A stretch of 64,000 nt of DNA. Origin: Curvularia clavata (Eukaryota). Each line of letters opens with the position of its first letter. Within the stretch, counting starts at the first letter, position 1. Location of the stretch: contig CP089281.1 of NCBI GenBank assembly GCA_023920165.1, forward strand, positions 868,001-932,000, in the 5' to 3' direction. The translations under genes were made by a program, and so were the position numbers. The notes beneath the pieces were generated by a model. It worked only from the letters and a program-made list of their open reading frames with translations, was not told the DNA's origin and searched no databases. Positions 38,290-44,100 of this stretch are shown piece after piece.

Positions 38290-38903
38290 ATGTCTGACAA
38301 CGGTGACGACTACGATGGCGCCGGTGACATGTATGTGCATCCGCTTCCCTAGCCGCAGAGTCTTTAGACTTGAATGGCGCAAATGAGCACGGCTAACATG
38401 AACAGCGATGAGCCTCTCATCGATTTCGATGAGGAAGCCGAGCCCGATCTCATGGATGACGAGGACGACCAGATGGGCGGCGGCGGCGAGGACCCAGACA
38501 ACGCCGACCCCAACGACGACAACGTAGTAGTATCTGGCGACGCCAACGCAGCAGCAGCAGCCAGAGAAGCGGCAAAGAATACTGTTACGAGCGAGAAGGA
38601 CAAGAAGGTCCCCAACGACAAGCGCACGACCACTCCATACATGACCAAGTACGAAAAGGCACGCGTGCTTGGCACAAGGGCGCTCCAGATTAGGTATGCG
38701 CAGTATTCTGGACATACCAAGCACAGCTAGATTAACCAATTTGCAGTGGTAACGCTCCAGTTTTGATTGATGTCGAAGGCATGACGGACCCCCTTCAGAT
38801 TGCTGCCAAGGAACTGCAAGAGAAGAAGATTCCTCTGGTTGTACGGAGATATCTGCCTGACGGCTTCTACGAGGACTGGACTTGTGAAGAACTCCTGATC
38901 TAG
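38290..38903 (+). CDS. RPB6: RNA polymerase I/II/III shared subunit Rpb6 (Rpo26)
   Basis: Exons 38290-38330, 38406-38693, 38747-38903: acidic N-terminus, [32 protein letters not shown]...[38 protein letters not shown]. Confidence 0.97.
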
Positions 38904-39171
38904 AGGCTATCTGTTGGGTTGCATTGGTATGGAGTTTGATTTGCTAGTGGATTGTCGGACATTTCGGCGAATGGAGTCTTATCTGAGTGGTTGCGCAATT
39001 ATATCCCGAATCTCATCCGATTCCCGTTAACTCCAAGCCTTCTCCGTTGCATGTGCGGACCCGCGGATCTGATTCCTATAACGAGCCAAAAGACTAGAGC
39101 AAGGTGGGGTAGCTAACGTAGCTATTCATTCCCCCCCCCCCCCGCACTAATTCCAGGCACAACGTCACTCT

Positions 39172-40289
39172 ATGCGGCAGTTCACAAAACTTCTAAAGGC
39201 CCCTCGTCTTGCATCTGCATTCCAACCTTCTGCACCGCGTTTTCTCTCCTACACTGCACGATCCGCCATGTCGTTCGAAACCACAGCAACCATTGCCTCC
39301 TTTGGAGGCAAGCTTCTCAAGCTCAAGCACAAGTCTGCCAGCACAAACACAGACATGGAATTGAACATGTTCCTACCCCCACAAGCACTCAAGTCCGGCG
39401 CAAAGGTGCCTGTACTTTTCTACCTTTCTGGCCTCACATGCACTGGCAACAACTGCTCAGAAAAGGGCTTCTTCCAGCATGGCGCCGCCCAGCATGGCAT
39501 TGCCATTGTATATCCCGACACTTCGCCGCGTATGTTGTTGTTACTGGAGAGAATGCCTTGAGCACCCAACTAACCCCCTCCTAGGAGGCCTCCAGATCGA
39601 AGGCGAGGACGAAGCATACGACTTTGGCTCTGGCGCAGGCTTCTACGTAGATGCCACCAAGGAGCCATGGACCAAAGGCTACAACATGTACTCATACATC
39701 ACCAAGGAACTTCCCGATGCGCTCTTTTCATCCTTTAAGGAGCTGGACTCTAGCAGAGTTAGCATCACGGGTCACAGCATGGGAGGCCACGGCGCATTGA
39801 CTCTGGTATGTTGGATGTGACGGTCATGCAGTCACCGATACTGACGCATGTGTCTAGTTCCTCAAGAACCCTGGAAAGTACAAGTCCGTTTCTGCATTTG
39901 CGCCCATTGCCAACCCAATCAACTGCCCATGGGGCCAGAAGGCATTCAAGGGATACTTTGGTGAAGACCAACAACAAAAGTGGAAGGAGCATGATGCTAC
40001 AGAGCTAGTAAAGCAGTGGAAGGGCCCTCTGGAGATGCTCATCGACGTTGTACGTATTTCGAGCCACCGAATATTCTGCTGCTTTTACTAAGAATACCAG
40101 GGAACCGGAGACAACTTTTACAAGCAAGGGCAACTGTTGCCTGAGAATTTTATGCAGGCGGCCAAGGAAGCTGGTAATGATAAGGGTATCCAACTCCGTA
40201 TGCAGCCCGACTACGATCACAGCTACTACTTTATGGCAACATTTGCGGACGATCACGTCGCATGGGCGGCAAAACACTTGGGAGCATAG
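39172..40289 (+). CDS. S-formylglutathione hydrolase (esterase D)
   Basis: [64 protein letters not shown]. Introns 39530-39584, 39806-39857, 40050-40100. Core starts at ATG 39268 with an in-frame upstream ATG at 39172. Alternative 3' end extends to 40368 (see findings). Confidence 0.95.
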
Positions 40290-41121
40290 TAAGTACGTGC
40301 GACTTTTGTCCCAACGATAGCTTGCTAACGACGACAGAAGCGGGTCAGGTCTGAAAGGAAAGCTATAGACTGGAGATGGCATTTGTTCGAGATTGGCATG
40401 AGCTGGCGGCTCCGTGTGCTTGTCATGACACAACAGGCCCCACATTTCAGCATAGAGCATGGTGCTGGGTTCGCAGGAAGCTGCAGCTCCTCCATTACAA
40501 ATTTACAATTCTAAACTTTTGATTCTATCAGTGTAGAAACTTGCCTAGTGACTTCTTGTAAAATCGTCTGTTCAGAATAATTTCCCCCAAACCCGAATCT
40601 TTATGATACACCTAGTCAAGTGAAAGTCAAGTAAAGGACCCGCCACTTAAATGTAAAAGTGATCGGGTAGCTACGTCGCCGACTATTTTTTGTGCGCACG
40701 TGTCACTCGGTGGAAATTGGGCGTACCTAAGCATCCCACCATGAAAAGCAGCCTTGGCACTCACACTCCAGTCATTCCTCAGCTCTTTTCGTCGCAACAC
40801 TGCAACCAAGATTGAAGCTCACGCTTGTTGTTTACTCTGGAGCTACTGTTGTCTTCTGTACCTGCAACAAAGCTCGTCTGTCAACTTTATTACAAATTTC
40901 CCTTTGCACACGCCGTACGTTAGCCCCTCGTGCCCCGCCTCTCTGCCTACACCGCTGAACGCTTTCACGATGCAGACTTCACGTCCCACTCCATGACCCA
41001 ATAGCGCTCAAATCGACCGAGTACCCTTAAATAACTCCGATGCGCACCATATAGCCCGGAACACACCCGCTCCTGACTTGTGATCCAAACCTATCCGCCC
41101 GGAATCGAGCCAGTGGAGGAA

Positions 41122-44100
41122 ATGGAGGAACAGGTAGGCACGCCCGATTGCCTCGCTACACCACAGTCCCTACAATGATGCTTATTCGGAAACTCTCAAG
41201 GTCGAAAATGCCATCCAAATCGCCGCCGATCCTACGTCGAGCCAGGAGGTGCGCGGTCAAGCGATTGGATACCTAGAACAGCTGCGGTCGGAAGGCTCCG
41301 CATGGCAAGCAGCCCTTGCACTCTTCACACGCAACCCTCGTGCTACCGATTTCGTCCGGCATACCTCGCTCGACCTCGTCAACAATGCCATCCAGGAGCA
41401 CCGCTTGGATGAGCAGGGCACTACCTATATCAAGGACACGCTCATGAACCATATCCGCCAGTGCTATGTGCCTGGTGCAACCCCGGACACGAATCACATT
41501 CAGAACAAGCTGATGCAAACTATCACATACCTTTTTGTCGCCTTATACCCGTCTTCATGGCAATCTTTCTTTGACGATTTCCGCGCTCTGGCGGGCGACC
41601 AATCAACCATTGGCAGCGTCAACACTGCTACAACATTCCTATACCTTCGTATGCTCGCTCAAGTCCACGACGAAATAGCAGATCAATTGGTCGCGCGCTC
41701 CGAATATGAAAAGAAGCGGAACACGGAATTGAAGGACCTCATTCGACAGCGGGATGTGCAAAAGATCGCACTGTCATGGCAAGAGATCCTTGCCAAATGG
41801 CGGGACGTGGATCTTGGACTCGTGGAAATGTTGTTGAGGACTATTGGGCGGTGGGTTAGCTGGATCGATATTAACTTGGTGGTCAACCAAGCCATGATCA
41901 CCACTTTCCTGGAAATGGCTGGCCAGCAAGGTATCGCGGATCCCGAGAGTGCTGCCGGAAAGGTGCGCGATGCCGCTATCGACACTTTTTCGGAGATTGT
42001 TGGCAAGAAGATGAGCCCTTCAGACAAGATTGAGCTGATTACTTTTTTGAACCTCGCTGAAGTCGTTGGCCAACTTATCAACAGTCCAGCTTTGGCTGAG
42101 TTCCACAGCCCCAACTACGACAATGATCTCGCAGAGACGGTTGCGAAGCTGGTCAACAACATTGTGTTCGACATTGTCAAGATTCTAGACAACGAAGCAG
42201 TCGACGAGCATGTTCGGCAACGCGCTGATGACCTCATCCGAATCTTCACGCCGTACCTCTTGCGTTTCTTCGCCGACCAATATGACGAAGTCTGTTCCAC
42301 TGTCATTCCATCGCTCACCGATCTCCTGACCTTTCTACGCAAACTGCAACAAAAACATAAATCCGTTCCCCCACAGTATGCAGCTGTGCTGCCACCCGTC
42401 CTGGATGCGATCATTGTAAAGATGAAATATGATGACACTGCATCTTGGGGTGAAGAAGGCGAGCAGACAGACGAGGCCGAATTCCTAGATCTCCGACGGC
42501 GCCTCCATGTCCTGCAACAGACAGTGACCGCTATCGACGAACCTTATTACATCGAGACGCTCAGCCGCCTAGTCAACGGAACATTCGGCCGCCTGTCGCA
42601 AGGTGATCAGTCATTGAGCTGGCGTGATCTCGAATTGGCCCTGTACGAAATGTTCCTATTTGGAGAGCTTGCCATTCGAAACCAAGGACTGTATGCGAAG
42701 CGCGAGCCTTCTTCTGTGGCCGCACAGCAGCTCGTGGTCATGATGAACAGCATGGTAGAGTCTGGCCTTGCGAATCACCCACATCCTGCCGTCCAGTTGC
42801 AATACATGGAGATTTGTGTTCGCTATTACCAGTTCTTCGAGCAGAATCCGGGACTGATTCCCAAGGTCCTCGAGAACTTTGTCAATCTTACACACAGCGA
42901 ACATGTCAAGGTTCGCTCAAGATCCTGGTATCTTTTCCAGCGCTTGGTCAAGCACCTGCGAGCGCAACTGGGCAATGTGTCTTACGATATCATCCAAGCG
43001 GTCGGTGACCTGCTCACAATCAAGGCCGAACTGCCTGATAGTTCGGAAGACGAAATGTCTTCTGATGAAGAAGATCAATCCGCAGATGCGCTCTTCAATT
43101 CTCAGCTGTATCTGTTCGAGGCTATCGGCTGCATTGCCTCTTCAAGCACCGTCTCAGTGGAAAACAAAAAGCTGTACGCACAAACCATTATGAGCCCGCT
43201 GTTCGAGGACATGGAGAAAACTCTTCCTCAAGCCAGAAACGGCGACGAGCGGGCTATACTACAAATTCACCATATCATCATGGCTTTGGGAACGCTGGCA
43301 CGTGGATACTCCGACTGGGTACCTGCAAACAACAGCAGTGCTGTGCCTCACAGTGAGGTTGCAGATGAGTTCTACAAAGCCTCCGAAGCTATTCTTGTCG
43401 CCGTAGAGTCACTGAACTCGTCCAGCTCCATTCGACACGCAGCACGCTTTGCCTTCTCTCGAATGATTGCTGTTCTTGGCTCGCGATTGCTACAGCAGCT
43501 ACCGTCATGGATTGAAGGATTGCTATCACTGAGTTCATCTATGGATGAGATTAGCACCTTCCTCAAAGTTCTGGGCCAAGTCATTTACACCTTCAAGTCA
43601 GAAATCGCGGGTATCTTGGATACAGTGATGAGTCCAGTCCTACAGCGCATCTTCACAGCCTTGGCTATCGTTCCTTCGGGTACAGATGATGAGATTCAGC
43701 TTGCTGAACTTCGCCGGGAGTACCTGAATTTCATTGCTGTGATTCTCGGCAACGGCCTGGGGTCTGTGCTCGTCAGTAACGGTAAGTCGAGGAAATCACA
43801 TTCTTTTTATCATTGCTAATATTATCTAGCAAACCAAGGCACTTTTGAACCTATCATTTCTTCAATCGAAACATTTTCACGCGACACACAAGACTACCAG
43901 ACCGCACGCGTTGCCATCTTCGTATTGACTCGCATGGTTGCTGTGTGGGGCGGACCTGACAAGGTAGGACCTGGCGCGAATGCCACACCTGCTTCGCCCG
44001 ATGCCACCCAGGCACCCCTGCCAGGTTTCGAGAACTACGTAGTAGAGAAGTTCGCTCCCTTGACATGGTCAGTCCCAGGATCACCTGGTTTCAACGCCAA

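Follow-up and report, generated by a model that had tools for sequence, protein, structure and literature searches.

The window analyzed here is a stretch of 64,000 nucleotides (nt) from Curvularia clavata (contig CP089281.1, positions 868,001 to 932,000), and its plus strand carries the S-formylglutathione hydrolase (esterase D) gene of a Pleosporales-like ascomycete. The stop codon of this gene is split by a short intron that ends in two acceptors three nucleotides apart. In assembled RNA contigs the intron is removed at the proximal acceptor, CAG, which rebuilds the stop codon. Use of the distal acceptor, AAG, would replace the stop with tyrosine and add a tail, YGSGLKGKL, whose end resembles a weak peroxisomal targeting signal type 1 (PTS1). 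On balance we favor the reading that the proximal CAG rebuilds the stop, that a minority of splicing events at the distal AAG adds the tail, and that the tail probably sends a small share of the enzyme to peroxisomes. An original prediction, made from the letters of the window alone, had proposed this arrangement as a switch for a cryptic peroxisomal signal, and that interpretation is partly supported by the results presented below. Positions are counted from the first letter of the window.

The stop-codon intron and its splicing

Every element of the predicted arrangement was found, base for base, where the prediction had placed it (Table 1). The 3′ end of the gene reads TTG GGA GCA TAG, and exon 4 together with the following G (40101–40289) translates to ...AAKHLGA and a stop. 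The acceptors form a NAGNAG motif, CAG AAG (40335–40340), with the two AGs exactly 3 nt apart and neither of them GAG. The unspliced message reads TAG TAA, and splicing at the proximal site joins TA to A(40338) to give TAA. Translation agrees with the earlier claim that retention and proximal splicing encode an identical short protein, ending in ...HLGA. Splicing at the distal site joins TA to C(40341) to give TAC, after which 40342–40368 translates to GSGLKGKL and a stop; the reading frame of the predicted extension is confirmed by this translation. By uniform-codon arithmetic, the chance of a nine-codon frame ending in [K/R]-L-stop is about 4e-4. Because of this low value, and because 35 of 65 distinct related sequences have the same layout, the in-frame tail is more than chance. 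The 9-nt gap between the branch A and the proximal AG was considered as a special feature and dropped, since intron 3 of the same gene has equal spacing.

Splicing was followed in Logan assembled contigs over 39200–40700 from four runs of four studies (X1, X2, X9, and X12). Runs X9 and X12 are metatranscriptomes, and the RNA status of X1 and X2 is only guessed on record. The joint 40288→40338, which skips 49 nt with GT..AG borders and no positional ambiguity, was present in all four runs, and each run contained one contig in which this joint was found together with the removal of the three upstream introns. The stop-codon intron is real and is removed at the proximal CAG; the short protein is thus encoded by the main message, whose end is ...GCA TAA. 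Of the two junctions in the original prediction, the proximal one was thus recovered from the assemblies of all four runs, and the distal joint, 40288→40341, was found in none of the four, in contigs of a kind that drop minor forms. Because assemblies drop minor variants, this result means that the distal form is not the major one, and nothing more. The word "switch" is too strong for these data, and a fixed minor leak fits equally well.

The RNA contigs from X1, X2, and X9 derive from another strain. They differ from the window at 40181 (T>C, coding) and at many sites of the 3′ untranslated region (UTR), including 40393, 40467, and 40533–40611. The same contigs have zero differences at 40338–40368, a stretch too short to indicate constraint.

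Conservation and translation of the hidden tail

When metagenome contigs were scanned with the last exon, 80 loci of 73–95% identity were retrieved. Together with the window these make 81 sequences, and removal of 16 exact duplicates left 65 distinct ones. Scripts were used to locate the stop codon in each locus and to enumerate the donor and acceptor combinations, which were then tallied; the AAG and the pyrimidine after it were partly built into the search pattern for tandem acceptors. A TAG stop whose G opens a GT donor (TA/GT, where the slash marks the splice border) was found in 55 of the 65 distinct sequences. A tandem class of 35 sequences, the window included, combines TA/GT with YAG-AAG-pyrimidine and an in-frame tail ending in [K/R]L-stop. 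The expectation that relatives would keep the distal-site tail in frame is borne out by this class. Its donors are GTAAGT (20 sequences), GTATGT (8), GTAGGT (4), and three others that occur once each, and the tandem acceptor lies 44–94 nt past the donor. The proximal acceptor is CAG in 28 and TAG in 7 of these sequences, the distal one is always AAG, and C (31 sequences) or T (4) follows it. Proximal splicing rebuilds TAA in all 35, and the tail is exactly nine residues long in 31.

The remaining loci reach similar ends by several routes. Among the other 20 TA/GT loci, four end within about 50 nt (L015, L062, L064, and L075), and ten reach a Y...[K/R]L or PNL tail (L025, L027, L039, L042, L043, L045, L046, L066, L067, and L078; determined partly by hand) through a single acceptor or through acceptors 6 or 2 nt apart. 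Ten of the 65 distinct loci are without TA/GT. One of these (L016) is a spliced contig of the proximal form and reads TAA AGC GGT ... AAG TTA TAG. The stop position of L044 and L049 is CA/GTGAGT, where retention gives Gln and then TGA, and splicing gives His followed by RRPLKQKL. For L053 and L059, with GC/GTGAGT, retention gives Ala and then TGA, and splicing gives AGRPMSRERL or AGRPMSRVRL. Beyond the 35 members of the tandem class, 14 further distinct loci attain an x[K/R]L or PNL tail via a single acceptor or differently placed splice sites. In total, splicing at the stop or next to it leads to an x[K/R]L-type end in at least 49 of the 65 distinct sequences, and the hidden signal is conserved by this measure. 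The tail was not found in 7 of the 65 (L041, L054, L057, L074, L076, L077, and L080), and the first five of these and L080 are unclear. Of the ten loci without TA/GT, L031, L033, L035, and L037 (with duplicates L038 and L040) are intron-free, with 298–375 open codons upstream of the stop. This lineage encodes a short tail directly, ...FGGSSGKI or ...FGSGAVRI, with a [K/R]-I end instead of [K/R]-L.

The 31 nine-residue tails were aligned from the acceptor onward. The last residue is Leu in 31 of 31, and it is specified by all six of its codons (CTG 9, TTG 6, CTA 5, TTA 5, CTT 4, and CTC 2). Lysine (25 tails) or arginine (6) stands at –2, with five codons in use, and the stop that follows the tail is TAG in 19, TGA in 6, and TAA in 6. 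A basic residue, R or K, occurs at –4 in 24 of the 31 tails (K in the window); –8 is mostly G/D/E and –7 mostly S/P/A/T. Directly past the tail stop the column entropy is 1.6–1.96 bits, which is essentially unconstrained, and the last six bases of the intron are variable as well. The constant amino acid end, the free choice of codons, and the fixed distance from the acceptor point to a translated segment and not to an RNA element. As judged by this comparison, the tail is translated and has been selected for a basic residue at –4 and for [K/R]-L at the very C-terminus.

It would be simpler to regard the intron as a plain 3′-end or UTR intron with a harmless tandem acceptor, behind which the tail is a chance frame that is never made. 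The window species does show the proximal junction only, and NAGNAG sites are often noise. However, the frame, the length, and the [K/R]-L-stop end have been kept with synonymous turnover while the introns and downstream regions diverged freely, and tail-bearing transcripts occur in relatives. The conservation pattern already contradicts a chance frame, which we regard as highly improbable. A set of near-identical strains could imitate conservation of this kind, but the identity of 73–95% and the divergent flanks argue against it.

The transcripts in question come from close relatives. An open reading frame (ORF) of 330 residues, P0133, fills a contig of 1118 nt and ends in ...KHLGA-YGSEFKERL; its alignment to the full-length homologue P0013 runs without gaps through the three intron positions, and across exon 2 its identity to the window is 98.6%. 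A second ORF, P0016, has 174 residues on a contig of 1060 nt, is continuous over introns 2 and 3, and ends in KHLNA-YDPSGRPKL. Two others, P0135 and P0136, end in ...KHLGAY at the contig edge. Since the transcript-derived proteins P0133 and P0016 carry the tyrosine-started tail, the distal site is used in those relatives. Both acceptor forms are thus known among relatives, the proximal one from L016 and the distal one from P0133 and P0016, and the window species shows the proximal joint only in its four assemblies. The tyrosine splice is also found in the genome annotations of Clathrospora elynae (YNSGFSQKL), Pyrenophora teres (YRAEPREKL), Decorospora gaudefroyi (YGSGFRQKL), Cucurbitaria berberidis (YSSGIKQML), and Exophiala dermatitidis (YGAQKHPKL and YGPQKHPKL). 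Judging from these models, the layout of stop-codon intron and tail spans at least the Dothideomycetes and the Chaetothyriales. The proximal acceptor is absent from L027, which has lost its AG, and from the L039–L046 group, which has a single acceptor, so that any splicing yields the tail and splicing is the only way to make it. For animals, one study ranks acceptor strength as CAG > TAG > AAG > GAG and adds a bias toward the upstream site (PMC2699507). Applied here, the preference for CAG over AAG and for the upstream site would predict a minor distal form, which matches the RNA of the window species.

Five mRNA-like metagenome contigs (L014, L032, L044, L052, and L073) still hold the stop-codon intron. 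They might show intron retention, and those other than L014 could instead come from intron-poor genomes. In L014 (109–1020), introns 1 and 3 are gone, intron 2 is kept as an in-frame insert of 17 codons after ...GALTL, and the stop-codon intron is kept. Either its processing was incomplete or it represents an isoform with intron retention.

An alternative source of the tail would be ribosomal read-through of the rebuilt TAA, which would turn TAA AGC GGG ... CTA TAG into X-S-GSGLKGKL and would have to make most of the long protein; we judge this improbable. The 3-nt spacing of the acceptors puts the tail in frame after TAA throughout the tandem class (all 35 sequences, the window among them), and the spliced contig L016 has exactly this form. 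Read-through-made PTS1 isoforms are known in fungi, but the context described for them is UGA CU (PMC4207609), and here the spliced message reads UAA AG and the unspliced one UAG UAA. AAG is followed by a pyrimidine in 35 of 35 sequences, as tyrosine needs (a purine would give a stop), although the filter makes this count partly circular; donor-linked NAG-AAG-purine occurs in none of the other 30 distinct loci. The transcripts and gene models of relatives open the tail with Y and not with X-S. In L078 the acceptors are 2 nt apart, which would put read-through out of frame, and the single-acceptor lineages require no read-through at all. The loci L066 and L067 were dropped from this argument, since a spacing of 6 nt between their acceptors leaves read-through in frame.

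The tail as a candidate peroxisomal signal

The short form of the enzyme ends in HLGA and the long form in GKL, and by pattern match only the long form is PTS1-like. The description of GKL as a non-canonical PTS1 holds, since it fails the canonical [S/A/C][K/R/H][L/M] and fits a published relaxed pattern. The PTS1 search pattern of Stiebler et al. includes [SATPCVNG]KL, hence GKL (PMC4207609), and Reumann's plant formula, as quoted in PMC12316961, allows G, Q, P, L, and V at –3 as non-canonical residues. Upstream basic residues are described there as strengthening weak PTS1 signals (PMC12316961). The end of the window tail satisfies both the pattern and the formula and has K at –4. We infer that the tail is a weak non-canonical PTS1, which would suit partial, cryptic targeting and from which import into peroxisomes may reasonably be expected.

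Several observations weigh against this assignment and against the splice-made targeting of which it is part. The first two are the distal joint missing from the RNA contigs, in which minor forms would not appear, and the seven loci without a recognized tail. The tripeptides of the 35 tandem-class tails are EKL (11), QKL (10), GRL (4), HKL, PRL, and YKL (2 each), and GKL, PKL, LRL, and AKL (1 each); AKL, in 1 of 35, is the only canonical PTS1. Six of the 35 match the pattern of PMC4207609 and 20 match Reumann's formula, and EKL and YKL (13 of 35) fit none of the PTS1 patterns compared. The annotated relative P0126 ends in QML. In a survey of the family, the best 150 representatives included 83 with a readable C-terminus, among which a directly encoded PTS1 was found by pattern match in 1 of 83 and [SAC][KRH][LMI] in 0 of 83. 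With 1 of 83 ends matching, peroxisomal targeting is not a general trait of the family.

These counts raise the question of whether the long isoform could be real and selected and yet have an end that is not peroxisomal, serving instead in stability, as a C-terminal degradation or interaction motif, or in other sorting. We consider this explanation unlikely, although it carries some weight. It would account for the predominance of E or Q at –3, for the absence of E at –3 with KL from the three PTS1 patterns compared, and for a family that is generally without PTS1. We know of no other signal, however, that matches the [R/K]-x-[K/R]-L layout. The invariant final Leu after K/R, the basic residue at –4, and the linker rich in Gly, Ser, and Asp correspond to the layout of weak PTS1 signals as described in PMC12316961. 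The GKL of the window and the PKL, PRL, ERL, and AKL of its relatives lie within the published pattern (PMC4207609), and the same enzyme is partly peroxisomal via a PTS1 in Candida boidinii (PMC1781073).

According to the reading that we prefer, splicing at the distal AAG would provide a weak PTS1 to part of the enzyme. Most transcripts are spliced at the proximal CAG with the stop rebuilt, the unspliced message keeps TAG, and the short protein encoded by both is presumably cytosolic. A minority would be spliced three bases later at AAG, converting the stop to Tyr and adding GSGLKGKL, a step for which the transcript ORFs of relatives provide support. With this tail, a minor fraction of the enzyme would be delivered to peroxisomes and would hydrolyze S-formylglutathione and regenerate glutathione there. 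The choice between the two acceptors may set a fixed ratio rather than act as a proven regulated switch.

The 5′ end of the gene offers a second possible source of isoforms. An in-frame ATG at 39172, upstream of the main one at 39268, opens an extension of 32 residues (39172–39267, plus strand). These residues are basic and hydroxylated, include no acidic one, and resemble a mitochondrial presequence. About a dozen of the closest loci preserve the extension (MRQLTKLL.xPR...) in frame, and the 328–330-residue models and the transcript ORF P0133 begin with it. The RNA contigs of X9 and X12 begin at 39238 and 39235, respectively, and those of X1 and X2 reach further upstream. A run of C residues (39135–39147, plus strand) lies about 25–35 nt upstream of the ATG at 39172. 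One gene might thus serve three compartments, with the 39172 ATG giving a mitochondrial form, the 39268 ATG a cytosolic form, and the distal AAG a peroxisomal form, and with the NAGNAG ratio tuned or regulated by conditions that raise formaldehyde in peroxisomes, such as methanol from pectin or methylated amines. This proposal is tentative and we hold it to be doubtful as a whole. If it is true, a three-base splice choice would be a metabolic rheostat conserved across the Dothideomycetes and the Chaetothyriales.

Should the tail function as a peroxisomal signal, part of the glutathione-dependent formaldehyde detoxification of many plant-associated and black-yeast ascomycetes would take place in peroxisomes, and the peroxisomal isoform would be absent from most gene models and proteomes. 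The locus is in addition a clean, conserved natural case of a three-base acceptor choice that converts a stop codon to a sense codon.

Gene context and comparison with known systems

The four exons of the hydrolase gene sum to 287 codons, and every border was set by joints in the RNA contigs (Table 1). The main ATG is located at 39268–39270, a small correction to the original prediction that falls outside the span it described. A protein search with the last exon returned 741 matches at E ≤ 0.001; among the matches listed, PF00756 and identities of 73–95% were found, and S-formylglutathione hydrolase or esterase D is the name given to many of them. The closest named matches are from Pleosporales and other Dothideomycetes, at 85–95% identity. 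A full-length homologue aligns across all four exons, which places the protein with S-formylglutathione hydrolase and PF00756. The translation of exon 2 contains GHSMGG and that of exon 4 contains DHSYYF, which we take to be the nucleophile elbow of a serine hydrolase and the histidine region, presumably with catalytic roles.

Table 1. Features of the S-formylglutathione hydrolase locus and its neighbors in window coordinates
Feature	Position	Strand	Remarks
Exon 1	39268..39529	+	From main ATG; joint 39529→39585 in 4/4 runs
Exon 2	39585..39805	+	Holds GHSMGG; joints 39529→39585 and 39804→39857 (cut +1, giving intron 39806–39857)
Exon 3	39858..40049	+	RNA joints on both sides; translation ends ...LIDV
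Exon 4	40101..40288	+	GTGDNFYK...AAKHLGA, then TA, the first two stop bases; joints 40049→40101 and 40288→40338
Unspliced stop TAG	40287..40289	+	Its G (40289) is intron base 1; from sequence
Stop-codon intron, 49 nt	40289..40337	+	Donor GTAAGT 40289–40294; joint 40288→40338 in 4/4 runs
Branch-like GCTAAC	40324..40329	+	From sequence
Proximal acceptor CAG	40335..40337	+	From sequence; used in RNA contigs
Distal acceptor AAG	40338..40340	+	From sequence; use would lengthen intron to 52 nt
Hidden coding tail	40341..40368	+	C(40341) finishes Tyr codon, then GSGLKGKL, stop TAG 40366–40368
3′ UTR	40369..40575	+	Minimum extent: X2 spliced contig reaches 40575; X1 contig passes 40700
Upstream neighbor gene	38374–38903	+	Acidic N-terminal part in translation
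Exportin-T-like downstream gene	41138–43819	+	

The upstream neighbor looks to us like the RNA polymerase subunit Rpb6, and an RNA contig of X2 runs from the region of this neighbor into the hydrolase gene. On the downstream side, public models from Pyrenophora fuse the esterase to the exportin: P0023 has 1224 residues with PF00756, PF19282, and PF08389, and P0125 has 1555 residues and is named tRNA exportin. These fusions are probably made because predictors splice the stop-codon donor to a far acceptor. A donor inside the stop misleads gene predictors, and public models lose the tail or are fused with the exportin neighbor. Annotation pipelines could screen for this layout.

The closest known arrangement is that of MDH2 from Yarrowia lipolytica, where the last intron has two 3′ splice sites and gives cytosolic and peroxisomal malate dehydrogenase (Kabran et al. 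2012, PMC3372373). As in YlMDH2, the downstream acceptor gives the C-terminal PTS1 and the upstream one the cytosolic form. The sites of YlMDH2 are separated by 4 nt and produce a frameshift (P-A-N versus A-K-I). Here the separation is 3 nt, it is the stop codon that the intron divides, and proximal splicing restores a stop. Both forms of YlMDH2 were counted in complementary DNA and localized by tagging (PMC3372373); for the hydrolase of the window species, use of the distal site and peroxisomal localization are predicted, and the signal is non-canonical.

Cryptic PTS1 isoforms of fungal enzymes arise by alternative splicing or by read-through, and the splicing cases include GAPDH of Ustilago maydis and PGK of Aspergillus nidulans (PMC3798809, on Freitag, Ast and Bolker 2012). 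The proposed arrangement in the hydrolase resembles these, since a housekeeping enzyme that is presumably cytosolic for the most part would acquire a PTS1-type end through a less abundant splice form, a feature conserved across fungi, and it differs in enzyme and pathway, which is formaldehyde and glutathione metabolism here and glycolysis there. The isoforms of Stiebler et al. 2014 (PMC4207609) likewise have a PTS1-like end hidden just behind the annotated stop. Unlike their UGA CU cases, the stop context here is UAA AG and the evidence favors splicing. For the enzyme itself, FGH1 of Candida boidinii has a typical PTS1 and a location shared by cytosol and peroxisomes (Yurimoto et al. 2003, via PMC1781073). 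The long form predicted here has a PTS1-type end as FGH1 does, and the shared location known for FGH1 is the one that we propose for the long and short forms here. The PTS1 of C. boidinii FGH1 is directly encoded without a splice choice, and its split distribution comes from partial import. Tandem NAGNAG acceptors that create or bypass a stop codon have been described in humans, the cited case being a disease allele (PMC2951375). There, as here, a three-base acceptor choice decides whether a stop is present; in the hydrolase the choice lies at the natural stop and is conserved.

No splice-made PTS1 on S-formylglutathione hydrolase was found in the literature searched, which did not extend to subscription journals or to the supplements of Freitag 2012 and Stiebler 2014. 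The hydrolase would add a new client, one whose stop codon is split, to a known mechanism, the formation of a cryptic PTS1 by alternative 3′ splice sites.

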